A DNA stretch of 13,618 bases from a virus. Its lineage: Duplodnaviria; Heunggongvirae; Uroviricota; Caudoviricetes. How positions within the stretch are numbered: position 1 is the first letter of the stretch; the number at the start of each line of letters is the position of its first letter. A program made the translations under genes and the position numbers. The stretch lies in the IMG/VR virus record IMGVR_UViG_3300046462_000479; one strand, written 5' to 3'. Positions 1 to 10,981 of the stretch are shown here, one piece after another. The notes under the pieces are model-generated. The model was not told where the DNA came from. It was given only the letters and a program-made list of their open reading frames with translations, and did not search any database.

Positions 1-449
1 ATGCCTTGGAAGTTAAGTTTGCGTCCGTTGATCCAGGTGCGTGAGAAGAAGCTGAAGCCGGGCCAGAGGTAGTGGACGCCGGTGGCCGGATGGGTTTGGC
101 CGATGCCGTAGAAGCCGACGGCGTCGAGTTTGTCGATCAGGGTGGTGGTGCGGACAGGGAAGACGTCGTGGTCGAGGAAGCCGATGTAGTCGTAGCCTTG
201 TTCGGCGGCGTAGCGGGCGGCGAAGTCGAGCGCGTCTGGGTGCTCGTGTTTGGCTGATGCGGCCCGCTGGTAGCCGACGCCGATGCCGTGACATGATTTC
301 TCCATGTCGGGGGCGTCTTCGTCGAAGCTGTTGTCGATCAGGCAGATACCGAATGGGTCTTTCAGGTATTTGTCTAGAAGACGTTTCTGTTGTCCGACCA
401 GGTCGGGTCGTCCAAACCCGATCGTGAACAACTCGATTTTCTTCTTCAC
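1..449 (-). CDS. GT-A fold glycosyltransferase, 3'-truncated by the window edge (absent from the ORF track)
   Basis: Manual translation from GTG 449 (GTGA overlap with the 446 stop): MKKKIELFTIGFGRPDL...ICLIDNS...YDYIGFLDHDVFP...HYLWPGFSFF, open to base 1. It has a DxD motif (DHD) after a hydrophobic strand. Confidence 0.75.
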   Translation of the reverse strand, partial: MKKKIELFTIGFGRPDLVGQQKRLLDKYLKDPFGICLIDNSFDEDAPDMEKSCHGIGVGYQRAASAKHEHPDALDFAARYAAEQGYDYIGFLDHDVFPVRTTTLIDKLDAVGFYGIGQTHPATGVHYLWPGFSFFSRTWINGRKLNFQG

Positions 450-1108
450 CTGTTTCCTCGCTGGTTTGTGGTTTTGTCCAGGGCGACGATCTTCCTGGCA
501 TATTCTTTAGGCCAGACTGTTCGGTAGTAGTCATCGTGGTCTGGATGGCAATAAGCTGGCGGAAGCACGATGTTGGGAGGATTGGTAGCAAGGACGCTGT
601 TCAGGGCAGATTCGTCATGCCAGACCGGCGTGATCCCTTGTTCTACGTCTTTGTCGATGCGGAGGGCGATCTGGCTGGAGAGGACGTGCATGTCGTCGTG
701 CGGTCCTCCGACGAAGCCGCCGCAGCAGTAGACGACGCGCAGCTGTTCCGGGACGAAGCAGTGGCTGTCCGGCCGTGTTTCGAAGGGGAGCATGGGGCCG
801 ATCGTGTTGACGTAGCCGGGATGTTGGGTGGCGGTGATGCCGGTGCCGAGGATTTCTGTTCTGACTGGGCCTTCGAAGCGCATGTCGGCGTCGATCAGGA
901 ACACGTAGTCGGTGTCGGGGAACCGGTTGAGCAGGTGGTGGTGGCGGTACATGGTGCCGTCCGGCCAGCCTTCGTCTCCTTCGACGGTGAAGAAGTGGGG
1001 GTTGCGGTCGGCGAGGAAGTGGCTGGTGGCGCTGCTGAACATTTCGCGGGCGAAGTCGGTGTACAGGCCGGGGCTGGCGACGGCTACGAGGCTGACAGAT
1101 TCGGCCAT
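446..1108 (-). CDS. Family 6 (GT6, ABO/alpha-1,3-Gal(NAc)T-like) glycosyltransferase
   Basis: GT6 hallmark motifs in the correct order: VAVASPGLY, YVFLIDADMRF (DxD), QHPGY, PFETRPDSHCFVP, YCCGGFVGG, WHDESALN, C-terminal KIVALDK. Confidence 0.88.
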   Translation of the reverse strand: MAESVSLVAVASPGLYTDFAREMFSSATSHFLADRNPHFFTVEGDEGWPDGTMYRHHHLLNRFPDTDYVFLIDADMRFEGPVRTEILGTGITATQHPGYVNTIGPMLPFETRPDSHCFVPEQLRVVYCCGGFVGGPHDDMHVLSSQIALRIDKDVEQGITPVWHDESALNSVLATNPPNIVLPPAYCHPDHDDYYRTVWPKEYARKIVALDKTTNQRGNR

Positions 1109-1668
1109 AGCCTGGTCATTCCGGCTTGTGATTCGAGGAAGTGGACGGTGTAGCTGTCGGGGGTGCGGGCCATGAAGTCGGCGATGGCTTGTCCGGGCCC
1201 GTTGCGGGTGTCGTGGCAGAGCATGACGGCGGTGGGTGTGATCCGGTGGATGAGTACGAGTTCCCGGAACACGTTTTCTTTCAGGTGGTCGCCGTCGAGG
1301 AAGAAGAGCGGGCTGCGCATACCGGATTGGGCGTAGGCGAGCAGGGCGGTGGTGACGCCGTCTCCTCGTAGCTGTTTGACGGGCATCCGTTTCAGGAACA
1401 GTCCGGTTCCTTGTCCGGCGTGGTCGCGGTCTAACAGTTCCAGTTCGGGGGGCAGGTCGACGGTGACGATGGTCGGTTTAGTTCCTGCTGCTTTGCTGGC
1501 TTCGTGGAAGATGCGGGCTGAGCTGCCTCGGTTGGTGCCCCAGTCGCCGATGAAGTCTGGTTTGAGCCGTTCTACTGTTTCGGCCATGAACGTGACTTCG
1601 TCGCGGCCGTAGCCGGGAAGGCTCATGCCTTCGATTTTCTCGTTGACCTGGTCGACGATGCTGCTCAT
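1084..1668 (-). CDS. Class I SAM-dependent methyltransferase (Methyltransf_24/CmcI-like)
   Basis: Motif I variant IGDWGTNRGSS, then VTVD, LFFLDGDH and LCHD. ATGA overlap with the upstream gene. Confidence 0.8.
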   Translation of the reverse strand: MSSIVDQVNEKIEGMSLPGYGRDEVTFMAETVERLKPDFIGDWGTNRGSSARIFHEASKAAGTKPTIVTVDLPPELELLDRDHAGQGTGLFLKRMPVKQLRGDGVTTALLAYAQSGMRSPLFFLDGDHLKENVFRELVLIHRITPTAVMLCHDTRNGPGQAIADFMARTPDSYTVHFLESQAGMTRLWPNLSAS

Positions 1669-2552
1669 TCGAACGCTCTTCCGATCGCTTGGATCGAGTC
1701 CCGGTAGGTGTAGTTGCTGACGAAGCGTTGTTGTTCGCGGACGAGTTCGAGGTAGTCGTTCCGTTTCAGGCTGAGCGCCCAGTCGAGCTGTTCTTCGAGG
1801 CTGCCGACGGGGAAGCTGAGGCGGTGGGCGAGCAGGAACACGTTGGTGATGCCGAGCTGTCCGTAGCTGACGTTTTTGAAGGCGCGGCAGGGCAGGTAGC
1901 TGTGTTCTGTCTGCCAGCGTCCGGCGAAGGCTGGCGCGATCCTGCCTGCCCGGACCAGCTGCACGTTTTCTGTGTCGCTGATGTGGGTGTACAGGCGTAG
2001 GGAGAGGTGGCGGAGCAGGAGCAGCCGTTCCAGTTCGGAGATCATGGTTTTGTTGCCGAGTTCTGTTCCTGGTTTGGAGGTCAGGTCCGACCAGACGGCG
2101 CCGATGAAGGGGACGGTGGTCGCGGACGGGTTGTAGACGGGTTCGTAGAACTCTTCGGGGAGCAGGTCTGTGCCCCAGGGCTGGAAGAGGATGCGGCTGT
2201 CCGGGTCGTATTGGCGGAAGGTGTGGAGCGGCAGCCCGTAGGCGTCGCTGGTCCAGACTTGGAGGCGGAGTAGCCGGTCGGGTTCGACGGTCCGGCAGAG
2301 CGGGTCGGCACCGTCGAAGTTGTGGATGACGTAGTTGACGCCGGGGATGGCGTTGCCGATCTGTTTGCCGCAGACGTCGGCGGCGATGACGGTGGTGTCG
2401 GGCATGAGTTGGCTACGCGATTCTGGTGTGTCTGGCAGCCATAGGCTGACGATCCCCATTTTTAGGGCGGTCTGGTGGTAGTGGCGCCAGATGTGGCGGA
2501 GGCTGTCGAGGCTGTCGGTGCCGCCCCAGAGGACGAGCCGGTTTACCGCCAT
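1665..2552 (-). CDS. Putative GT-B-type glycosyltransferase (CgeB/Glyco_trans_1_2-like C-terminus)
   Basis: 295 aa. VPFIGAVW, and YLPCRAFKNVSYGQLGITN resembling the RxFE...G...ITN segment. Coupled within the GT operon. Confidence 0.55.
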   Translation of the reverse strand: MAVNRLVLWGGTDSLDSLRHIWRHYHQTALKMGIVSLWLPDTPESRSQLMPDTTVIAADVCGKQIGNAIPGVNYVIHNFDGADPLCRTVEPDRLLRLQVWTSDAYGLPLHTFRQYDPDSRILFQPWGTDLLPEEFYEPVYNPSATTVPFIGAVWSDLTSKPGTELGNKTMISELERLLLLRHLSLRLYTHISDTENVQLVRAGRIAPAFAGRWQTEHSYLPCRAFKNVSYGQLGITNVFLLAHRLSFPVGSLEEQLDWALSLKRNDYLELVREQQRFVSNYTYRDSIQAIGRAFE

Positions 2553-2791
2553 GACTCTTGGAGGAGTTCGGCGCTGGTGCCTAGCGTGGCAACAAGCTGG
2601 CTGGCGGCCCGAACAACGTTTTTGCAGGAGGACCAGAGGGCTTCCAGGTCTTCTCCGTCTGAGTCGGGTAGCTCGATGCCGTTGTCGGCTAGCGCTTTGC
2701 GGTAGAGCAGCAGCTGCATGGTTAGTCTGCCGAGTTCTTCTCGGTGGCGCATCTCGATGGCGATCAATGTGGCGTGTTCGCGGCTAGTCAT
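2543..2791 (-). CDS. Hypothetical helical protein (82 aa)
   Basis: ORF fills the gap with overlaps at both ends and has a helical/coiled-coil-like sequence. Confidence 0.7.
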   Translation of the reverse strand: MTSREHATLIAIEMRHREELGRLTMQLLLYRKALADNGIELPDSDGEDLEALWSSCKNVVRAASQLVATLGTSAELLQESWR

Positions 2792-2948
2792 TGCCGAGAC
2801 CGTATCCGTTGATGAATTCGTCGACGGCCCGCCGCGCGTCTCTGCCTGCCTGGTGTTCCTGTCCTTCTTCGATGATGACTTCGGTCGAGATTCTGAGTTT
2901 GTCTGCCGGGGTGGTTGCTACTTCTAGTTCTATTCGGATTGTTCTCAT
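2784..2948 (-). CDS. Small hypothetical protein (54 aa, MRTIRIELEVATT...GLGND; not in the ORF track)
   Basis: ATG 2948 overlaps TGA 2947-2945 (ATGA). Its TAG 2786-2784 overlaps the next start at 2791, so it fills the operon gap exactly. Confidence 0.7.
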   Translation of the reverse strand: MRTIRIELEVATTPADKLRISTEVIIEEGQEHQAGRDARRAVDEFINGYGLGND

Positions 2949-3748
2949 TCGAAGGTCAGCTCCATTTCTGCGTGTGCTGCAGTTACCCGATCGCTTTTAA
3001 TGCTGTCGAGGTTGAGGCGTCGTCCTTCGCAGTAGGCGTTGTTGAGGTCTCGTTCTGGCGCTTCATGGGTTTCTGCGTACCGGTTCGGGTGTGTTTCGTT
3101 GACGCGGTTGACCGGAACTCCTACTAGGTGCGATTCTCGATAGCAGGACGCGTAGGGGCTGAGCATGGTCTGTGTTTCGGATTGCAGTATTTCTTCGAGC
3201 TGGTTGGGGTTGTTGAAGTTGCGGCTGCCGTCGAGCATGTCCAGTAGGTCGTCTCTGTGGAACAGGTGGCCGTCGAGTGAGCCCATATAGCCGAAGTCGG
3301 CGTCGGCTTGCCGCCAGTCCCAGACAAGCAGGTCGTCGACGGCTTCGAAGGTGGGCAGGCCCTGAATGCGGCGCAGCGGGTAGCACTGGCCTGTGTTCAG
3401 TCCGAGCCGGAGGCTGAAGCAGAGGATCTCTTCCATTTTCAGGGCGACGTCCGGCCGGGTGAGTCCGTTAAGGGGACGGTAGAAGACGCTGTCGTCGGTG
3501 AGGAAGCAGGCGTGGTCGCAGGCGAGGTCGAGCAGGTCGAGGACCTGCGTCTGGAAGTTTGATTCTCTGAAGAAGTCGACGGGGTGGTCTTGCATCGTCT
3601 GCCAGTAGGCTCGTTCGTATTCGTCGTCGGTGGCGGTCCAGATGACGGTGATCTGGTCGAACAGGTTGTCGGTGTGACATGTCACACTGCGTAGGAGCAG
3701 GTCGAGCTGGCAGGCACGGTTTTTGCTGAAGACGATGGCGCTATTCAT
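2945..3748 (-). CDS. Putative GT-A-like glycosyltransferase (267 aa)
   Basis: Start reassigned to ATG 3748 (ATGA overlap). Motifs IVFSKNRACQLDLLLRS, CFLTDDSVF (acidic metal-binding motif), FGYMGSLDGHLF. Confidence 0.62.
   Translation of the reverse strand: MNSAIVFSKNRACQLDLLLRSVTCHTDNLFDQITVIWTATDDEYERAYWQTMQDHPVDFFRESNFQTQVLDLLDLACDHACFLTDDSVFYRPLNGLTRPDVALKMEEILCFSLRLGLNTGQCYPLRRIQGLPTFEAVDDLLVWDWRQADADFGYMGSLDGHLFHRDDLLDMLDGSRNFNNPNQLEEILQSETQTMLSPYASCYRESHLVGVPVNRVNETHPNRYAETHEAPERDLNNAYCEGRRLNLDSIKSDRVTAAHAEMELTFE
3672..3687. repeat. Palindrome copy 1 GTGTGACATGTCACAC
   Basis: Perfect 16-bp palindrome inside the 5' part of the 2945-3748 gene. Confidence 0.95.
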
Positions 3749-3966
3749 GTGTGGGTGGTGCCGTTGATGAGCGCGTGCTTTTTGCAGTGTTTGTGGACGG
3801 TTCCGGGGATGGGGACGGTGGCTGGCCGGATGCAGCCTTTTTCGACGCAGTGGAGGTGTCGGAGGGCGAAGAAGTAGGTGAGCGGCACCCAGATGATGCT
3901 GGCGACGAGGTTGGTGAGAACGGCTCCTGTGTCCCATCCGAACCAGTCGTTGACGATCCGGGTCAT
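3745..3966 (-). CDS. Small membrane protein (73 aa) with a Cys/His-rich C-terminus
   Basis: ATG 3966 (ATGA overlap). Hydrophobic segment GAVLTNLVASIIWVPLTYFFAL, then HCVEKGC...HKHC. Confidence 0.7.
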   Translation of the reverse strand: MTRIVNDWFGWDTGAVLTNLVASIIWVPLTYFFALRHLHCVEKGCIRPATVPIPGTVHKHCKKHALINGTTHT

Positions 3967-4175
3967 AGGGGGATCATGTCCATGTTGGTGATGTCTTCCG
4001 GCCAGAGTCGTCTGATGATCCCGTTGATTTTGACTTCGTAGACGACTCGCGGTTTTTCCCATTCTCCTCTGCGGTCGATGACCCGTTCGACTTCGCTGGG
4101 GGCTGCGACGATTGTTTCTCCGTCTGCTGTTTTGATCTGCCAGCGGAACTCGCGTTGTCTGCTGAGGCCTTTCAT
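3963..4175 (-). CDS. Hypothetical protein (70 aa)
   Basis: 4-bp overlaps at both ends, within the operon. Confidence 0.7.
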   Translation of the reverse strand: MKGLSRQREFRWQIKTADGETIVAAPSEVERVIDRRGEWEKPRVVYEVKINGIIRRLWPEDITNMDMIPL

Positions 4176-4807
4176 TGGTCGTCTCCCGGTCTGATGAGGG
4201 CGATGACGGTTCTATCGAAGACGGGTTCGCCGAGTTCTGCTTGTAGGGCTTGGGTGTAGTCCCAGTCGCCTTCGTATCGTTGGCCGAAGCGTGCGTTGCA
4301 GGGTCGGGCGAGGATCATGGGTGTGCCTATGTCGCCGTGGCGGAGTATGGGTTCTCGCCAGCAGGTGATGCTGCGGGCGGGGTGGTTGTCGCCGAAGTGC
4401 ATCCGGTAGATGGCCCAGGGGGCTGTTTGGCGTCTGAGTTGTCCGAGGGTGCCGGGGACGGCTATGTCGTCGTCGTCGATCGTCCAGATGTAGTCGGCGT
4501 CTGGTTGTTGGTCGAGGACGTGGTTGCGACTGTTGTGGCCCCAGCAGCCTCCGTCGTTGAAGGGGATATAGGTCCAGGTGGCGAGGCTGTAGCGTTTGTG
4601 TTCTTGGCTGAGGTAGGCGACGTCGATGCTTTCTGTTCCTGTTACCAGGTCTGTGTGGACGATGTAGACGTGGTCGTCTTCTTGTAGGTCTGGTGCGAAC
4701 GAGGAGAGGGTGCGGACGAGGGTTTGGCGGCCGATGGTGGGAACGATGATGGCGAGCTTGGTCGGAGAGGGTGTTGCTTCGCCGTCGAGCGTGTTTACTA
4801 CCGTCAC
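4172..4807 (-). CDS. GT2-like glycosyltransferase
   Basis: LAIIVPTIGR, GHNSRN, YIWTIDDDD (DxD), GDWDY. RBS AAAGGAG upstream of GTG 4807. Confidence 0.8.
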   Translation of the reverse strand: MTVVNTLDGEATPSPTKLAIIVPTIGRQTLVRTLSSFAPDLQEDDHVYIVHTDLVTGTESIDVAYLSQEHKRYSLATWTYIPFNDGGCWGHNSRNHVLDQQPDADYIWTIDDDDIAVPGTLGQLRRQTAPWAIYRMHFGDNHPARSITCWREPILRHGDIGTPMILARPCNARFGQRYEGDWDYTQALQAELGEPVFDRTVIALIRPGDDQ

Positions 4808-5010
4808 TTGTTTCTCCTTTCGTGGGGACGGCTCTGGCGCATACTGTCGGTGACGAGGTTGATGGGGTTGAAGGAGGGGAACAGGCAGTTGGTGCAGATG
4901 TGGGGTATGTGGTCCATTAGTCGTCTGGGGGTGTGTTTGCCGCAGTCGATGCAGTCGGCTGTCCCGTAGTCTGGTTGCGGCTGAGGGTTTGGTCCTTTGC
5001 TGCCTACCAT
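4804..5010 (-). CDS. Small Zn-ribbon protein (68 aa)
   Basis: ATG 5010 overlapping the upstream stop. CIDC and CTNC pairs. Confidence 0.65.
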   Translation of the reverse strand: MVGSKGPNPQPQPDYGTADCIDCGKHTPRRLMDHIPHICTNCLFPSFNPINLVTDSMRQSRPHERRNK

Positions 5011-5531
5011 TCCGGGACTGTCGTGAGCGGCTCGGTGGGGCGGCCTTCCATCAGCTGTTTTTTCGGGTTTAGGTGTTGTACTGCTGGGAGGTGCACGTGT
5101 GGCTGCTCCTTGTAGTGGCGGGCGAGAATGTGGCGCATGAGTACGACGTCGACTTGGTTCCAGCTGACGTTTGAGTCTTGGACTCCTTTCATTGCTGCCG
5201 GGTATTTGGCTAGGAATTCTGCTTTGAACCAGGTGCAGCCGAGGGCGGGGCCGACGTCGGTCAGCCACGGGTACGGGTAGCAGCCGTAGGGGCAGCCGCA
5301 GGTCCGGAACGCTTCGATGACGTCATGGCGGACGACGATGTCTGGTTCGACGACCATGAACGTTTCTCCGGTCTGCCAGTGGTTGGCAAGGACGCGTGCG
5401 TAGGCGTGCGGGTCGTCCGCACTGATTTCGGTCAGTTCGAGGTTAACTTCTTGTCCGAGGACGTGCAGTTCGAGGGCCGAGAGCGTTTCGTCGTACAGGC
5501 TGCCTGGCGTGTAGATGGTGACGACCCTCAC
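5004..5531 (-). CDS. Putative short GT-A-like glycosyltransferase (175 aa)
   Basis: FMVVEPDIVV (ExD variant of DxD), ALGCTWF (GxGC-like), WNQVD and a late His, consistent with a GT2-like fold. Confidence 0.55.
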   Translation of the reverse strand: MRVVTIYTPGSLYDETLSALELHVLGQEVNLELTEISADDPHAYARVLANHWQTGETFMVVEPDIVVRHDVIEAFRTCGCPYGCYPYPWLTDVGPALGCTWFKAEFLAKYPAAMKGVQDSNVSWNQVDVVLMRHILARHYKEQPHVHLPAVQHLNPKKQLMEGRPTEPLTTVPEW

Positions 5532-5548
5532 TGGTCGACCCTACGCTT

Positions 5549-7021
5549 CTATCCTGCTTCTGTCCAGCGGCTCCGGCCTGATCCGGGGCTGGCGATGACG
5601 GGGACGGGGAGGCTGGTTTGGTCTGGTAGCGGGTCGGTGGGGGTGAGCGGGCTGGTTCCGGGTTTGAGGCTGGCTTGGTAGCGGTTCCAGGCGTCGTTGT
5701 CTCCGGTTGCTTCGCTGGTCCATTTGCTGCCGCCGGTTTGGGGGATGCCGGTGGGCTGCATGTGTTTTTTGAGTTTCCAGGGCATCCGTTTGACGGCGAG
5801 GGCGACGGCCATGGCGATGTCGTCGTGGGCGCCTTCGGGGACGGCGTAGCGGACTCCGCGGGGGGTGTAGTCGTATTCGAAGCTTTCGAGTTCGTCTCGG
5901 AGGCTGCCGCGGCCGTCGGAGAGTTTGAGGTCGGGGAAGTGGATGCGTTCGTCTTGGATGGCGAGGGCGAGGCCTTCGAGGAGGTCTTGGCGGCTGCGTT
6001 CGCTGAAGGTGTAGCCGAGGACGCGCATGTCTCCGCGTCGTTGTAGGTCTTCGACGATGGCGTCGCCGGTGCCTGTGCTGTCGACGAGGGCTTGGGTTCT
6101 GCCGATGCGGCGGACGATTTCGGTCATGGTTTCGCGGTGGGGTTTGCGGAACCGGTCGAGGTGGGTCATGTCGCCTTGCCGGTCGAGGAGGCAGATGGCG
6201 GTGTAGTCGCGGGCTTCGGCGTCTCGGACGGTGGTGAGGTTGACGGCTCCGCGTCCTGCGAGGTCGACTCCGGCGGCGATCGGCTGCGCTTTCGAGTAGG
6301 CGGGAACGATGCAGTTTTCGATGGCTTTGAGTCCGAACGGGTTTGAGGTGTCGTCGAGGGCTTCGGCCATGTATAGCTGGCGGAAGACGTCGTCTTGGCC
6401 GAGCCGGTGGAAGTCGCGTTGGGCGGCTTTGATTTCGGTGTCGTCGAGGACTCCGGCTTGGACGGCGTCCCAGGCGGTGATGCGGTGGTAGGCCATGTCG
6501 GGTTCGCCGGATTCGGCGAGGCGGCTGAGCCGGTAGAACCAGTTTTTGCGGCCGCGGACGTTGCCGATGATGCGGACGGGTCCTTTGGTGAAGGTGAGGG
6601 TGCTGCGGATGGCGTGCCAGGATTCTTCTCTCATGCGGCTGGCTTCGTCCATGACGCAGGCGTAGACGTCTTCGCCGTAGAGGTCGTCTGGACGGTCGCC
6701 TGATTTGAACATGAGCCGGGTTTGGTTGGGGAGGGTGATGAGGAAGGTGGATTGGTTGCGTTTGCACATTCCTTTGATGGGGTTGAGCATGATCCAGCCG
6801 CGCCGGAAGGCGATTTCGGCTTGGCTGAAGACGGGGGCGACCCACCAGTAGTTTTGTCCGGGGTTGCCGCGGAGGGACTGTTCGATGATCCAGGCGAGGC
6901 AGCCTGATGTTTTTCCGGCTTTGGTTGAGGATTCGATGCAGCTGATGCGTGCGGGGTCGTAGATTGCGGCTTTTTGTTTGGGGTAGAGGGATGCTGGTTC
7001 GAACTGGATGGTTTTGGCCAT
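5549..7021 (-). CDS. terL: Phage terminase large subunit
   Basis: Walker A-like ESSTKAGKT, Walker B CVMDEASR, coupling motif IIGNV. RNase H-like nuclease motifs GVDLA...DYTA, VDSTGTG, HDDIAMAVALA. An in-frame TAA upstream fixes the ATG at 7021. Confidence 0.93.
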   Translation of the reverse strand: MAKTIQFEPASLYPKQKAAIYDPARISCIESSTKAGKTSGCLAWIIEQSLRGNPGQNYWWVAPVFSQAEIAFRRGWIMLNPIKGMCKRNQSTFLITLPNQTRLMFKSGDRPDDLYGEDVYACVMDEASRMREESWHAIRSTLTFTKGPVRIIGNVRGRKNWFYRLSRLAESGEPDMAYHRITAWDAVQAGVLDDTEIKAAQRDFHRLGQDDVFRQLYMAEALDDTSNPFGLKAIENCIVPAYSKAQPIAAGVDLAGRGAVNLTTVRDAEARDYTAICLLDRQGDMTHLDRFRKPHRETMTEIVRRIGRTQALVDSTGTGDAIVEDLQRRGDMRVLGYTFSERSRQDLLEGLALAIQDERIHFPDLKLSDGRGSLRDELESFEYDYTPRGVRYAVPEGAHDDIAMAVALAVKRMPWKLKKHMQPTGIPQTGGSKWTSEATGDNDAWNRYQASLKPGTSPLTPTDPLPDQTSLPVPVIASPGSGRSRWTEAG

Positions 7022-7036
7022 GCGGGGAGTATCGCA
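7022..7036 (-). promoter_or_regulatory. Possible extended -10 for leaderless terL transcription
   Basis: TG-C-GATACT 6 nt before the ATG and no SD upstream of terL. The first position of the -10 is non-consensus. Confidence 0.3.
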
Positions 7037-7040
7037 GATC

Positions 7041-7070
7041 TTGACACACCCCCCTGTACTGTAGTATACT
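7041..7070 (+). promoter_or_regulatory. Sigma70/SigA-type promoter for the rightward gene string
   Basis: TTGACA (7041-7046), 18-nt spacer, TATACT (7065-7070). Confidence 0.75.
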
Positions 7071-7077
7071 TATGTGT

Positions 7078-7160
7078 GGAGGAGTGCTGCGTGTGGGCGC
7101 GCGCTCCTCCCTCTCCAGGGGGGGCGGTCCGCTTGACCCGGCGGGCCGCCCCTTCTCCCC
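7078..7160 (+). other. Structured 5' leader with two hairpins
   Basis: GGAGGAG 7078-7084 / CTCCTCC 7104-7110, and GGGGCGGTCCGC 7121-7132 / GCGGGCCGCCCC 7141-7152 (12 bp, one G-U). Confidence 0.6.
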
Positions 7161-7164
7161 TAGC

Positions 7165-7176
7165 GTGACATGTCAC
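7165..7176. repeat. Palindrome copy 2 GTGACATGTCAC
   Basis: Intergenic, between the leader hairpins and gene 7209. Confidence 0.95.
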
Positions 7177-7208
7177 ACTGGCGGTTCGATCCTATGAGGG
7201 AGAGTGGT

Positions 7209-7433
7209 ATGCCGTACAAACACTATGAGGACAAGTTGGCTGCGCAGCGGCGCTGGTATGCGGCACATCGGGAGCAGGTGATCGCGAGCGTTGCTGCCCG
7301 GAAGCGGTCGTTGTATGCGGGTACGTGTCGGAGCTGTGGCGGGCCGACGGTCGGCAATTCGAAGCTTCAGGTTCCGGAGTGGTGCGGGAAACCTGAGTGT
7401 AGGAGGGCGCAGTGGATAGCAAAGAACAGATGA
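7209..7433 (+). CDS. Small basic Zn-ribbon protein (74 aa)
   Basis: ATG 7209 after GAGGGAGAG. CRSCG and WCGKPEC motifs. Confidence 0.72.
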   Translation: MPYKHYEDKLAAQRRWYAAHREQVIASVAARKRSLYAGTCRSCGGPTVGNSKLQVPEWCGKPECRRAQWIAKNR

Positions 7434-7714
7434 CGGTGATCGTGATGCGGGTGGAGGACCTGGAGGTTCCGTATGTCCCGTCGACGGTGTTGGTGTGTGA
7501 CCGGTGCGGGACGCCGGTGTGGTTGGACGTAAAGAACGTGCCGGTGGTGCGGCGGGAGGCGGCGAAGGTTGTCTGTCAGCGGTGTGCGCTGCCGGAGCTG
7601 CTGGTGTGCGGGATGGATGGGGCGATGGTGGGCGGAGACCGGGTCGACCTGCCGGACGACATGGCGGGCGAGATCATGGCAAACATGGTCGAGGACGAGT
7701 TGGGGCGGTCGTGA
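7430..7714 (+). CDS. Zn-ribbon protein (94 aa)
   Basis: ATGA overlap at 7430. CDRCG and CQRC motifs. Confidence 0.72.
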   Translation: MTVIVMRVEDLEVPYVPSTVLVCDRCGTPVWLDVKNVPVVRREAAKVVCQRCALPELLVCGMDGAMVGGDRVDLPDDMAGEIMANMVEDELGRS

Positions 7715-7890
7715 GGCGCCCGTTCGGGAAGCTGATGGATCTGTTGGAGGCCGATTTGCGTCAGCCGGACAGGCCGGACTGGAAGCTTGGCGAGCTGGCC
7801 TCGAAGTACGGTGAGCCGGTGGAGCGGATCATGGATGCGTTGGACGCGATCCGGGAACGCAACGGCGAAAAGACGTATATCTCGGTGTGA
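7711..7890 (+). CDS. Small protein, possible HTH (59 aa)
   Basis: GTGA overlap. WKLGELASKYGEPVERIMDAL is HTH-like. The stop TGA lies inside a palindrome copy. Confidence 0.65.
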   Translation: MRRPFGKLMDLLEADLRQPDRPDWKLGELASKYGEPVERIMDALDAIRERNGEKTYISV

Positions 7891-7900
7891 CATGTCACAC
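7885..7900. repeat. Palindrome copy 3 GTGTGACATGTCACAC
   Basis: Contains the stop codon of gene 7711-7890. Confidence 0.95.
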
Positions 7901-7919
7901 TCGATTGGGGAGGTTTGTG

Positions 7920-8204
7920 GTGGAGGATGAGGCGAAGATTGTGGAGCGGGAGGGTGGGGTCGAGGTGTTCGATCAGGGGGACGCGCACGCCCGCCATCTG
8001 ATTGAACGCGAGGGCAATGTGGCGGTGGTGGTGGCGGCGGTGACGAAGGACGGCGATTCGCAGTGTTTGGCGATGTTGGCGTCGCCGGTGAATGCGGAGC
8101 AGCGCAACTTTCTGTTGGCGTTTCTGGCGGAGGTGGGAAGGACGCTGGTCAATCGGGCTGAGTTGTTGGACGGGATGGAGTTCGATGGTGACGGCGAAGC
8201 GTAG
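7920..8204 (+). CDS. Hypothetical protein (~94 aa)
   Basis: GGGAGG RBS at 7908-7913 with GTG 7920. Alternative in-frame start at GTG 7887. Confidence 0.65.
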   Translation: MEDEAKIVEREGGVEVFDQGDAHARHLIEREGNVAVVVAAVTKDGDSQCLAMLASPVNAEQRNFLLAFLAEVGRTLVNRAELLDGMEFDGDGEA

Positions 8205-8922
8205 GTGGAGGGCGGCGGAGGCGGCCCGCCTGTATGGGCTGTTGGGGTCGCAGCGTCTGGTGGCGGAACGGATGGGCGTGTCCCGGAACGTGGCGTCGGA
8301 TCTGTTGTCGGATCCGGATCGGGCGAAAGCGTTGGCGCGCCGGGCGGGGTATGCGGGCGTGTGTGTGGATTGTGGCGGACCGACGGACGGCAGCCTGGGT
8401 GCGGGGAAGACTTCGAGGCGGTGTCTGGCGTGTAGTAGGGCGAGGGCTCGTGCGGGCCGGAAGTGGACGGAGGAGACGATCGTGGACGCGATTCGCCGGT
8501 GGGCTGACACGCATGACGGCCGTCCGCCTGGGGCGATGATGTGGAAGAAGGCGGACCGGGAGAACAACTATCCGTCGTTTTCGCAGGTGTATGCGCCTGG
8601 CGGCCCGTTTCCTAAATGGTCGGATGCGATTGTGGCGGCCGGGTTCGAGAGTCGTACGGGCGTCTATGAGCGGTCGGGTGTGCGCGGGTTGAAGCAGAGG
8701 ACGTTGCGGGGTTTGTTGTTTGTGCAGGAGCGTCGGGGTGGGCGGGTGACGCCGGACATGTTGGCGTGGAGGTTGGGGTTGGAGCCGTCGGCCGGGTTTC
8801 AGATGTTGGGGATTTTGTGTCGGCGCGGGCTGGTGGAGCGGGTGGCTCGTGGCGATTACCGGCTGACGGAGGCTGGAGAGCAGTGTGACTTGTCACACTT
8901 AAAGGAGGGGAAGAATGGCTGA
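8185..8922 (+). CDS. Multi-module DNA-binding protein: HTH + Zn ribbon + homing-endonuclease-associated repeat + winged HTH
   Basis: Start ATG 8185 after GGAG. SQRLVAERMGVSRNVASDLL (HTH); CVDC..CLAC; KWTEETIVDAIRRW...RPP...YPS...FPKWSDAIVAAGF (HNH_repeat-like); VTPDMLAWRLGL...LCRRGLVERVARGDYRLTEAG (wHTH). Confidence 0.75.
   Translation: MVTAKRRWRAAEAARLYGLLGSQRLVAERMGVSRNVASDLLSDPDRAKALARRAGYAGVCVDCGGPTDGSLGAGKTSRRCLACSRARARAGRKWTEETIVDAIRRWADTHDGRPPGAMMWKKADRENNYPSFSQVYAPGGPFPKWSDAIVAAGFESRTGVYERSGVRGLKQRTLRGLLFVQERRGGRVTPDMLAWRLGLEPSAGFQMLGILCRRGLVERVARGDYRLTEAGEQCDLSHLKEGKNG
8882..8899. repeat. Palindrome copy 4 AGTGTGACTTGTCACACT
   Basis: Immediately 5' of the RBS of gene 8915. Confidence 0.95.
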
Positions 8923-9187
8923 CGGTAATAGGTTCGAAGCGTTTTCGGAGTCGGAGCGGGTGTTGTTGATGATGGGTTTGACGTTAGACATCATGGATAT
9001 GATGTACGGGATCGTGTCTGATGAGCCTGCCTCTCCGGTTGTGGCGCGTGAGAAGATGCCGATCATGATCCGGATGGTGAACGAGATGGCGGACACTTTT
9101 GGCACAGACGCGGTTAACCGTGATCTGGTGGCGCAGCTGATGGCGGTGTTGGATCAGCGGGCGGCGGAGGCTCGTGATGCCGGTTGA
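8915..9187 (+). CDS. Hypothetical helical protein (90 aa)
   Basis: Strong RBS AAGGAGGGG and an overlapping start. Confidence 0.75.
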   Translation: MADGNRFEAFSESERVLLMMGLTLDIMDMMYGIVSDEPASPVVAREKMPIMIRMVNEMADTFGTDAVNRDLVAQLMAVLDQRAAEARDAG

Positions 9188-9721: not shown

Positions 9722-9933
9722 TGGCCGAACAAAACGATCGGGACGACTTGAAGACCGCTTCCGTATGGGGTCGCTACGGCCCGCTCGCCTGCGACGAGTG
9801 CGAGCGGCACTTCCTCGACAACATGCCCGCGCTACTCCACGCCTCCGCATCGGTCGGCATCGAGCACGCCCTCACCACCGACATGGCGCTCGACGCCTAC
9901 TTCGAGGCTTACCACCGAGAGAATCATGCCTAA
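9721..9933 (+). CDS. Hypothetical protein (70 aa, CDECERH motif)
   Basis: Start reassigned to ATG 9721 (TGATG coupling, GAGGAAAG upstream). Confidence 0.7.
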   Translation: MAEQNDRDDLKTASVWGRYGPLACDECERHFLDNMPALLHASASVGIEHALTTDMALDAYFEAYHRENHA

Positions 9934-10483
9934 GCGCGAATCGCAGACCGCGAACGTATGCGGGAGGGTGGCCGATCTCATCGAGGGACTTGGCGAGATT
10001 TACACGCGCGAGGGCGTCCACATCTGGCTCACCGGACGCCACCGGCTGCTTGGCGACCGCACGCCACTCGATGTGATGCGCGACGAGGGCGGCCTCGACC
10101 GCGTAGAAGCCCTGCTCGCGTATGGGGGCGACCACTACGCGGCAGACCCGCTCGGGACACACATCTCATCGACCGCGAAAGATCGTGCGAAGTGGTCTGA
10201 CCTGTTGGACGAGGACGATCTCGCCATCATCGCGGAAGATGCGAACCCGAAGACCGCTTCCCTATACGAGCGCGAGACGAAGGCACAGGTCGCCTTCTGG
10301 CGCGAGCAGTTCTTCGGTGCCGACAGTCGCGTGGCAGAACTGAAGGAGGCGATCCGGGACGCAATCGAGAACATCGAGAGCGACGTTTACCTGAACGCCG
10401 TCGATGCGTTAGATACCGGCCCGATGATTGCGGCCATCGTGGAGACGAAGCAGCGGCTCAAGGCGGCGGTGGGCGATGTCTGA
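9926..10483 (+). CDS. Protein with an N-terminal Xre/MbcA/ParS antitoxin C-terminal-like domain fused to an acidic helical region
   Basis: IYTREGVHIWLTGRHRLLGDRTPLDVMRDEGGLDRVEALL fits the W-L-x4-x2-L-G-x2-P-L pattern of the antitoxin toxin-binding domain (DUF2384-like). Confidence 0.65.
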   Translation: MPKRESQTANVCGRVADLIEGLGEIYTREGVHIWLTGRHRLLGDRTPLDVMRDEGGLDRVEALLAYGGDHYAADPLGTHISSTAKDRAKWSDLLDEDDLAIIAEDANPKTASLYERETKAQVAFWREQFFGADSRVAELKEAIRDAIENIESDVYLNAVDALDTGPMIAAIVETKQRLKAAVGDV

Positions 10484-10706
10484 CGAGAACCTCAAGACCG
10501 CAAAAAGCTGTGTCGCGTGGCTGCTCGGTCGGAAGGTCGATCCGCGCGAGACGACCATCGTCAAATTCATGCCGACGAGTCCGCCGCTGCGCGGAACCAT
10601 CGTCCTCGTAGACGGAGTCCGCTGCCGGGTGAGCTACGCGCGCGTGACGTGGGATGGGCCGCGCTGGACGATCCGATCGCTGCGCGTCAAAGGAGCTGCT
10701 TTATGA
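10476..10706 (+). CDS. Hypothetical beta-rich protein (76 aa)
   Basis: ATG 10476 overlapping the upstream stop. ATGA overlap downstream. Confidence 0.68.
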   Translation: MSDENLKTAKSCVAWLLGRKVDPRETTIVKFMPTSPPLRGTIVLVDGVRCRVSYARVTWDGPRWTIRSLRVKGAAL

Positions 10707-10981
10707 CCGCTTCTGATACGCCGCCCATGAGTCCGTGCATCGGCTTCGGAGAGTTCGAGGGGACATGCGAGAACGAGGCCGGAGATTCACCGTGGTCGAA
10801 GCTGTGGTGTCTGCGCTGCGACCGTCTACGCCTCGACCACATCACGGCCCAGATGGAAAAGATCAGCGCCCGATTCGCTGTCGAGGCTCCTCCCCACCCA
10901 GAGGAACGGACACCAACATCCGAACCGGCAGGCCACGTTCCCTCCAAACCTGCCCCCAACCAGATTAACCGCTCCGCATAG
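10703..10981 (+). CDS. Cys-containing hypothetical protein (92 aa) with a Pro-rich tail
   Basis: AAGGAG RBS and ATG 10703. C-x9-C...CLRC spacing. Confidence 0.65.
   Translation: MTASDTPPMSPCIGFGEFEGTCENEAGDSPWSKLWCLRCDRLRLDHITAQMEKISARFAVEAPPHPEERTPTSEPAGHVPSKPAPNQINRSA

Follow-up and report, generated by a model that had tools for sequence, protein, structure and literature searches.

A phage GT6 glycosyltransferase with an intact DxD motif, encoded in a glycosyltransferase operon behind the terminase gene

What would a phage build with an enzyme of the blood-group transferase family, and on which surface would the product end up? The question is raised by a 13,618-nucleotide stretch of viral DNA (IMG/VR record IMGVR_UViG_3300046462_000479; the window, in what follows, is this whole stretch), whose minus strand encodes a glycosyltransferase of family GT6 at positions 446-1108. 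An initial annotation, drawn from the letters alone, had described a phage-encoded GT6 enzyme with a complete motif set, a DxD metal site and an A-type donor pocket, and had suggested a metal-dependent UDP-GalNAc (uridine diphosphate N-acetylgalactosamine) alpha-1,3 transferase able to build A-antigen- or Forssman-like epitopes on virions or host cells. The gene, its motifs and its phage origin are borne out by the analysis described here. The best overall explanation of the locus, which we regard as reasonably probable, is that a GT6 enzyme of the previously defined clade 1 acts in a cytoplasmic glycan pathway, with virion proteins as the likeliest target.

The reading frame is intact, and the motifs of the enzyme were read straight from the DNA, with their ABO equivalences taken from a HMMER alignment to human GTA:

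446-1108, minus strand: GT6 glycosyltransferase coding sequence, 220 residues (P0001), with its ATG at 1108 and its stop codon at 446-448.
884-892, minus strand: DxD motif D73-A74-D75 in FLIDADMRF, the predicted Mn2+/Mg2+ site, equivalent to GTA D211-V-D213.
815-823, minus strand: H96-P97-G98, matching H233-P234-G235 of GTA; at position 235, GTB has Ser in place of the Gly of GTA.
704-730, minus strand: donor-pocket strand Y127-C-C-G-G-F-V-G-G135, with C129 equivalent to GTA L266 and G131 to GTA G268.
608-622, minus strand: W163-H-D-E-S167, with E166 in the place of the catalytic Glu, which is E303 in GTA and E192 in BoGT6a.
458-475, minus strand: C-terminal tail K212...R217 in LDKTTNQR, a predicted contact to the UDP diphosphate.

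The protein matches the Pfam family Glyco_transf_6 (PF03414) with an expectation value (E) of 2.6e-21 and 76.2 bits, against a gathering cut-off of 25, and PHROG 3317 ('glycosyltransferase') at E 6.7e-22, so that the family named in the initial annotation is confirmed. The best match by sequence to a solved structure is Bacteroides ovatus BoGT6a (4ayj; E 1.8e-26); human GTA (1lz0) is matched at E 6.5e-19, the ABO A/B transferases at about 6e-19 and bovine alpha-1,3-galactosyltransferase at about 1e-13. An AlphaFold2 model built on 35 homologues (mean predicted local distance difference test score, pLDDT, 96.2) superposes on ABO transferase crystal structures with a template modelling score (TM) of 0.87 and a root-mean-square deviation of 2.1 Å, and a Foldseek comparison of the model with GTA, GTB and BoGT6a (TM 0.82-0.87, E about 2e-20) shows a GT-A fold.

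Within the alignment of homologues (A1), D73, D75, H96, P97, G98, all five residues of W163-S167, D211, K212 and R217 are invariant. Indeed, every catalytic or donor-site residue that can be mapped (Y16, W48, R55, D73, D75, H96, G98, Y127, G130, W163-S167 and K212) is intact and invariant in the subclade of the window protein. The tail residues K212 and R217 are predicted to act as do GTA K346, alpha3GT K359/R365 and BoGT6a K231. The HMMER alignment to GTA ends at residue 188, and we infer the equivalence of K212 and GTA K346 by way of the GT6 protein of cyanophage P-SSM2, in which K212 is aligned with a Lys of 'ALKK'; a C-terminal Lys is conserved in all GT6 proteins (PMC3961637). The window protein is a minimal catalytic domain, which ends eight residues past K212 and has no stem, no transmembrane segment and no C-terminal membrane-binding extension; its highest 19-residue Kyte-Doolittle mean is 0.93, below the range of transmembrane helices.

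The chemistry suggested by these residues is that of a retaining GT-A enzyme. D73 and D75 would hold Mn2+ or Mg2+, bridging to the UDP diphosphate, and the C-terminal tail (K212, R217) would close over the donor; E166 of WHDES would act as catalytic carboxylate, three small residues (C129, G131 and G98) would leave room for an N-acetyl group, and the sugar would be added in alpha-1,3 linkage to a beta-Gal-type residue of a glycan. In GT6 enzymes, DXD goes with metal dependence and NXN with metal independence (Pham et al. 2014; PMC3961637). Judged by its motif and by the assayed relative PaGT6 (see below), the window enzyme is very likely metal-dependent. A galacto-configured UDP donor is likely as well, and there is a slight balance in favor of GalNAc as the preferred sugar; UDP-Gal may also be used. 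The donor positions are in the A-type state, which has a small residue or Leu at ABO position 266 (here C129) and Gly at 268 (G131) and 235 (G98); the residues at 266 and 268 are as the initial annotation had given them. UDP-GalNAc would be the likeliest donor because these three small residues should accommodate its N-acetyl group, as does the AGG pocket of BoGT6a. Given the intact DxD and the small residues at three mapped donor positions, a metal-dependent UDP-GalNAc alpha-1,3 transferase appears to be the most reasonable reading of the protein.

Such an enzyme has known counterparts. Thiyagarajan et al. (2012) split GT6 into three clades (PMC3516806); their 'minimal catalytic domain + DXD' clade (clade 1) holds cyanophage P-SSM2, marine homologues and PaGT6 of Parachlamydia, and in the bacterial clade that makes surface glycans the proteins have a membrane-binding BHB domain at the C-terminus (PMC3516806). 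The window protein has every feature of clade 1 that can be read at the sequence level, in that it keeps DXD and consists of the catalytic domain without BHB domain, stem or anchor, and its membership is close to certain. The only assayed member of this clade, PaGT6 of Parachlamydia acanthamoebae, is likewise a minimal DXD domain without BHB, although it is a cellular (chlamydial) rather than a phage protein; the comparison is with its published description. PaGT6 uses UDP-GalNAc as donor and H-trisaccharide or 2'-fucosyllactose, but not N-acetyllactosamine, as acceptor, and requires Mn2+ or Mg2+ (PMC3516806), which is the kind of activity that the initial annotation had predicted for the window protein. 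The P-SSM2 protein (PSSM2_268, YP_214499; 231 residues against 220), the type phage GT6, can be aligned with the window protein over its entire length, with 29% identity (E 8e-26), and has the motifs DVD, YYAGGFNGG, WHDES and the C-terminal Lys. There, too, a methyltransferase gene precedes GT6 and several glycosyltransferase genes cluster around it. However, P-SSM2 is a marine T4-like myovirus whose cluster lies among auxiliary genes and not between terminase and portal, and its methyltransferase and both proteins flanking its GT6 have no detectable homology to the window neighbors.

The two enzymes with solved structures differ from the window protein in more respects. BoGT6a (4ayj, 4cj8) shares the fold (TMq 0.84) and an x-G-G pocket (AGG), and its donor is UDP-GalNAc; however, N95-A-N97 (NAN) stands where the window protein has DAD, and BoGT6a is metal-independent, carries a C-terminal BHB domain and builds a cell-surface mimic of the A antigen. 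Human GTA (1lz0), at about 25% identity, has the GT-A fold, DxD, HPG, the GG pocket and WHDES in common with the window protein, but it is a Golgi enzyme with a stem and a transmembrane anchor, and has Leu266 and Thr245 in place of Cys129 and Pro108. Published descriptions of DxD in phage GT6 date back to 2010-2012, and a 2025 soil-virome paper lists phage GT6 and GT11 among soil-phage auxiliary genes, with most of the GT6 coverage in the soils of that study being viral (PMC12016548). The window gene is thus a further clade-1 member, placed in a soil-phage subclade, with an ordinary motif combination already described for phages. For the GT6 gene itself little changes, since it adds one more member to a clade described and assayed over a decade ago.

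The abundance of such genes is another matter. In the literature, prokaryote and phage GT6 amount to 36 bacterial species, two cyanophages and unassigned metagenome genes; the searches made here show them to be far commoner. When 1.84 billion cluster representatives were searched exhaustively with HMMER, 1,704 clusters (50% identity) matched at E<=0.001. In IMG/VR, at least 287 viral contigs that encode a relative were detected by a pattern scan, and among GenBank phages GT6 is present in 56 records, which belong to cyanomyoviruses (P-SSM2 and ACG-2014f, for example), huge phages and fragments of gut phages. A word-indexed search yielded 154 relatives, including a subclade of proteins of about 220 residues at 45-70% identity, many of which sit on 70-80 kb contigs, and the contig recorded for the exact window protein measures 77,618 bp; among the matches listed, PF03414 was found in all 120 homologues. 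A scan of IMG/VR with the single window protein had given no match; the relatives were found once alignment A1 was used. The same alignment, run against GTDB species genomes as two peptide patterns, a search that excludes close relatives only, yielded 31 pattern matches and no relatives.

For a census of motifs, the GT6 domains of the 264 nearest proteins were aligned to the profile, and 267 domains covered the motif columns; these columns of the hidden Markov model were used in place of a regular-expression count of DxD, which was noisy outside the subclade. DxD is present in 264 of the 267 domains, NxN in one and NxD in one, and is thus near-universal among the nearest homologues. The initial annotation's premise that most bacterial GT6 enzymes use NxN therefore holds for the small, well-studied clade of gut and pathogen species but fails for the nearest environmental relatives. 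Likewise, its overall picture of a phage GT6 with intact DxD and small residues at 235, 266 and 268 stands, but not the rarity that it implied. At the pocket tripeptide, the aligned homologue domains have CGG (126), AGG (80) or GGG (7), so that a small residue followed by Gly-Gly accounts for about 80% of them; Ala at 268 (CGA or AGA) forms a separate minority of about 11-12 domains. (A pocket census on the IMG/VR loci is biased, because the pocket motif was itself among the search patterns.)

In a FastTree phylogeny, the window protein falls within a clade of 55 metagenomic and IMG/VR sequences (Shimodaira-Hasegawa-like support 98), which takes in all of the 45-70% relatives together with seven syntenic IMG/VR contigs and has the signature YYCGGF(V/I)GG plus a C-terminal LDKTxxERGxR. 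The P-SSM2 protein lies outside this subclade, as does the BoGT6a-like NxN representative P0233 (E 2e-42 to 4ayj). The tree, made from non-vertebrate sequences, speaks to the grouping of phage and environmental sequences relative to NxN; there, the window protein sides with the DxD sequences. Two long metagenomic proteins, P0134 (1191 residues) and P0148 (1263 residues), have two GT6 domains each, with pockets HAT + HGS and HAT + HGT, which are nearer to the HisAlaAla type of alpha3GalT than to the A type.

The genes around GT6 bear on what its product might be attached to. The window is DNA of a phage from an uncultured soil-type lineage, with a large terminase as its hallmark gene, and from the terminase onward the minus-strand genes follow one another closely, most of them overlapping by 4-25 nucleotides. 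In order of transcription, the genes besides GT6 are:

5549-7021, minus strand: terminase large subunit (TerL), 490 residues, heading the operon (PHROG_2, E 4.1e-32).
5004-5531, minus strand: conserved protein of 175 residues, encoded immediately after TerL and sharing 54% identity with L001:6367-6870; it is present in 6 loci and has no Pfam or PHROG match.
4172-4807, minus strand: GT2-like GT-A glycosyltransferase of 211 residues with a TIDDDD motif; its family profile (A4) matches TarP (6h1j) at E 3e-4 and 5tze at E 7e-3.
3963-4175, minus strand: small open reading frame.
2945-3937, minus strand: unclassified putative GT-A enzyme, the 'GT6 partner', an open reading frame of 330 residues characterized by alignment A7, gene fusions and the ESM Atlas.
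2784-2948 and 2543-2791, minus strand: two small open reading frames.
1665-2552, minus strand: GT-B-fold glycosyltransferase of 295 residues (AlphaFold2 pLDDT 94).
1084-1668, minus strand: methyltransferase of 194 residues, dependent on S-adenosylmethionine, of the Methyltransf_24 / CmcI-rhamnosyl-O-methyltransferase type (CmcI/TylF-like; PF13578 E 3.4e-6, PF04989 E 2.3e-4).
3-449, minus strand: GT-A-like protein cut at the window edge, of which the N-terminal 149 residues remain, with NRPD...VIDN...LDHD motifs in alignment A3.

The operon thus holds five glycosyltransferase-like genes and one methyltransferase gene, all coupled. In particular, the 3' end (stop) of the methyltransferase gene overlaps the start of GT6 by 25 nucleotides, and the start of the 3-449 gene, whose product has about 235 residues in relatives and matches SpsA weakly (E 0.013), overlaps the stop of GT6 by 4 nucleotides. 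No transmembrane segment was found in any of the operon proteins within the window. In the AlphaFold2 model of the GT-B neighbor, Foldseek detects resemblance to GtfC, Gtf3, SenB and PimA at E 1e-7 to 1e-4, and PF13524 is matched by 10 of the 16 members of its family; a sequence search of the PDB with the family profile (A2) gave nothing useful.

The TerL protein is 72% identical, over its whole length of 490 residues, to that of the IMG/VR contig L003. Its identity to the terminases of isolated phages is about 29% at most, the top match being Tunturiibacter phage Tunturi_4, followed by Thermus phages, and for this reason the lineage is taken to have no cultured relative; a megablast search of the window against GenBank phages found no close DNA relative. 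A 502-residue open reading frame at 5541-7049 on the same strand, considered as a gene preceding the operon, was rejected: it has no family hits and is the wrong frame of TerL, a high-GC artifact. The two frames of about 500 residues overlap almost completely, and only that of 490 residues is real.

In three related contigs (L001, L003 and L006) the gene order can be followed further: TerL is succeeded by the glycosyltransferase operon (with two further GT2 genes), then by the portal gene (PHROG_113, E 2e-69) and the head protease. Homologues of the window methyltransferase are present in L001, L004, L006, L007 and L036. The order of the two adjacent genes is not fixed: the methyltransferase gene precedes GT6 in the window, but GT6 precedes the methyltransferase gene in the syntenic L001 (10001-11183), L004 and L006. 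The window methyltransferase is 52% identical to the L006 and L007 versions and 28% to that of L001. From these comparisons, the methyltransferase/GT6 cassette appears to be undergoing shuffling or replacement within the lineage.

Gene fusions identify the partners of GT6 more directly. In the metagenomic proteins P0121 and P0133, a homologue of the 2945-3937 protein is followed by GT6, and P0131, P0132 and P0247 have these two domains together with a GT2; in these fusions the family is N-terminal to GT6, with 31-45% identity and E down to 2e-66. A further fusion, P0263, has GT6 followed by a homologue of the truncated 3-449 protein. The GT-B neighbor (1665-2552), considered as the N-terminal partner in such fusions, was ruled out in favor of the 2945-3937 family. 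Of 80 viral loci, 34-35 have a homologue of the GT-B neighbor within 10 kb of GT6; for the 3-449 family the count is 15-18, and for the 2945-3937 family it is 13. Because of the fusions, and because the same families recur as GT6 neighbors in many viral loci, GT6, the GT-B enzyme and the 3-449 and 2945-3937 family enzymes very probably belong to a single pathway.

The 2945-3937 family is the least understood and most interesting part of this system. Alignment A7 reveals motifs resembling those of GT-A enzymes (AIVFSKxRAxQLDLLL and FLTDDD), and in the ESM Atlas the window protein scores 0.97 against clusters that are mostly viral and include one automatically named a glycosyltransferase; searches of Pfam and of PDB sequences with the A7 profile gave no match. 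Its true start is probably M64 (3748), since homologues begin there and the first 63 residues are a stretch rich in Arg, Pro and His that is absent from them. The conserved neighborhood and the fusions define the family as a partner of GT6, for which it could provide the acceptor-making step.

Which sugar is transferred, and to what, can now be weighed. Small-pocket variants of the ABO enzymes are able to use both donors, and the window enzyme might mainly take UDP-Gal, as a B-type or alpha-Gal-type enzyme, or another UDP-sugar, so that no A- or Forssman-like GalNAc epitope would result; this we place on the unlikely side. The known tripeptides at 266-268 are AlaGlyGly and LeuGlyGly for the A type, MetGlyAla for the B type, GlyGlyAla for Forssman synthase and HisAlaAla for alpha3GalT/iGb3S (PMC6351642). 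This code is context-dependent, in that the functional repertoire of a tripeptide varies with the enzyme background, even among vertebrate paralogues (PMC6351642). Several features of the window enzyme weigh against an A-type reaction of the usual kind: no assayed precedent for Cys at 266 was found in the literature; Pro108, in the window protein and most of its subclade, stands in place of GTA T245 and of BoGT6a T134, which contacts O6' of the donor sugar (PMC3961637), so that the sugar-binding site is not identical to those of assayed enzymes; and a GT11 fucosyltransferase was not detected in the window operon, which makes an H-type acceptor only a candidate. However, Gly at both 268 and 235 is the A-type state, both assayed prokaryotic enzymes (BoGT6a, with its x-G-G pocket, and PaGT6) take UDP-GalNAc, and the separateness of the Ala-268 relatives (CGA/AGA, about 11 domains) suggests that this position is under functional choice. 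The genes next to GT6 elsewhere bear on the acceptor. Among 97 proteins encoded by the two flanking open reading frames in each of 53 non-redundant viral loci, the commonest Pfam families are GT2 (11), GT25 galactosyltransferase (9), GT11 alpha-1,2-fucosyltransferase (8; best E 4e-34), FkbM-type methyltransferase (7), GT31 galactosyltransferase (6), epimerase/GDP-mannose-dehydratase (4) and GT10 fucosyltransferase (4). This set is a toolkit for blood-group-like structures of Gal, Fuc and GalNAc, and it supports the annotated idea of A-antigen- or Forssman-like products for phage GT6 in general. (Sulfotransferase and pyruvyl transferase are occasional GT6 flankers in other phages, L009-L080.)

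As for the target, the operon would build a methylated oligosaccharide in the cytoplasm, by means of several glycosyltransferases and a methyltransferase, with GT6 contributing one late or capping step, the addition of alpha-linked GalNAc or Gal; encoded right behind the terminase gene, this pathway is probably expressed with the head genes. By analogy with virion glycosylation in actinobacteriophages, we tentatively propose that the glycan goes onto the phage's own virion proteins, a choice that is the likeliest because the operon sits among late genes and includes no membrane or export component, and because its GT6 has no counterpart of the membrane-binding domain seen in the bacterial surface-glycan clade. 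In Cluster O mycobacteriophages, according to a paper citing Freeman et al. 2023 (PMC11600133), three glycosyltransferases and an O-methyltransferase modify capsid and tail tube, and in F1 actinobacteriophages tandem glycosyltransferases with an O-methyltransferase likewise modify these two structures (PMC13313380). The window operon, whose products are all soluble, has a gene content of the same kind as these Che8-, Corndog- and Cluster O-type cassettes, namely tandem phage-encoded glycosyltransferases with an O-methyltransferase; the targets of the cassettes are proteins of the capsid and the tail tube, and no GT6 is reported for them as far as the citing literature shows. Some observations count against a virion target: a search for Ser/Thr-rich tails in the inspected putative head-region proteins of relatives revealed none, nothing in the window identifies a glycosylated substrate, and cyanophage glycosyltransferase clusters are usually read as modifying the host cell surface (PMC12801897). 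The main rival applies the same enzymology to a precursor of lipopolysaccharide, of teichoic-acid type or of a glycolipid at the cytoplasmic face of the host membrane; the virion would remain undecorated, and the surface of the infected cell would change, for example to block superinfection or to alter recognition. Characterized bacterial GT6 enzymes (BoGT6a and relatives) do make surface blood-group structures of the O-antigen type (PMC3516806), cyanophage clusters that include GT6 are generally regarded as genes of cell-wall synthesis or modification (PMC12801897), phage GT6 and GT11 are treated as host-directed auxiliary genes in the 2025 soil-virome paper (PMC12016548), and the operon of one relative holds a GT2 gene with weak GtrB-like PHROG matches. 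Nevertheless, we find remodeling of the host envelope somewhat doubtful: genes for a flippase, a polymerase, a priming transferase or a membrane protein of any kind are absent from the part of the operon within the window; the window protein has none of the BHB domain carried by the surface-glycan bacterial clade (PMC3516806); and the operon lies between terminase and portal, which are normally late genes, when a remodeled surface would be of little use to the phage. Glycosylation of DNA is a further option, and one that is highly improbable here. T-even phage glycosyltransferases modify phage DNA, and sugars placed at hypermodified bases would serve restriction evasion; a weaker Foldseek match of the GT-B neighbor is indeed T4 alpha-glucosyltransferase (1y6f, E 3.5e-4). 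To our knowledge, however, all known GT6 acceptors are sugars. At least five transferases and a sugar-type O-methyltransferase imply an oligosaccharide rather than a mono- or disaccharide on a base, the window has no hydroxymethylase or other base-modification gene, and the GT6 neighbors in other phages are fucosyl- and galactosyltransferases.

If the glycan does go to the virion, the idea can be extended to the whole uncultured soil-phage lineage, whose particles would then bear a coat of methylated oligosaccharide ending in alpha-GalNAc, a terminal group of the A/Forssman-like kind; in this extended form, the proposal is a long shot. Were it true, this would be the first GT6-dependent virion glycan, and blood-group-like epitopes would be common on environmental phage particles. 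Lying between terminase and portal, the operon offers a convenient case for deciding between virion and host cell, a question that it shares with the cyanophage clusters.

Other parts of the window and its relatives have features of their own. Over positions 1-9000, the plus strand has a GC skew of +0.2 to +0.4 and an AT skew of -0.1 to -0.4, so that the coding (minus) strand is markedly rich in C and A; this strong strand asymmetry collapses past about 10,000, where gene orientation switches. There, 9926-10483 on the plus strand encodes a protein of 185 residues with the C-terminal toxin-binding domain of Xre/MbcA/ParS antitoxins (PF09722, E 3e-8), and the next gene, 10517-10981 on the plus strand, encodes 154 residues with no family hit; the two, located in the phage early region, may be an antitoxin-toxin pair, or the first an orphan anti-defense antitoxin. 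An open reading frame of 276 residues at 8092-8922 on the plus strand, which has a C-terminal winged-helix domain of the MarR/AbiEi type (E 2e-5), is opposite in strand to the surrounding genes and overlaps a minus-strand open reading frame at 7761-8567. In the syntenic contig L001, the head-maturation protease (15223-17634) is an 803-residue fusion with a NUDIX-like region (PHROG 1198, E 8e-13).

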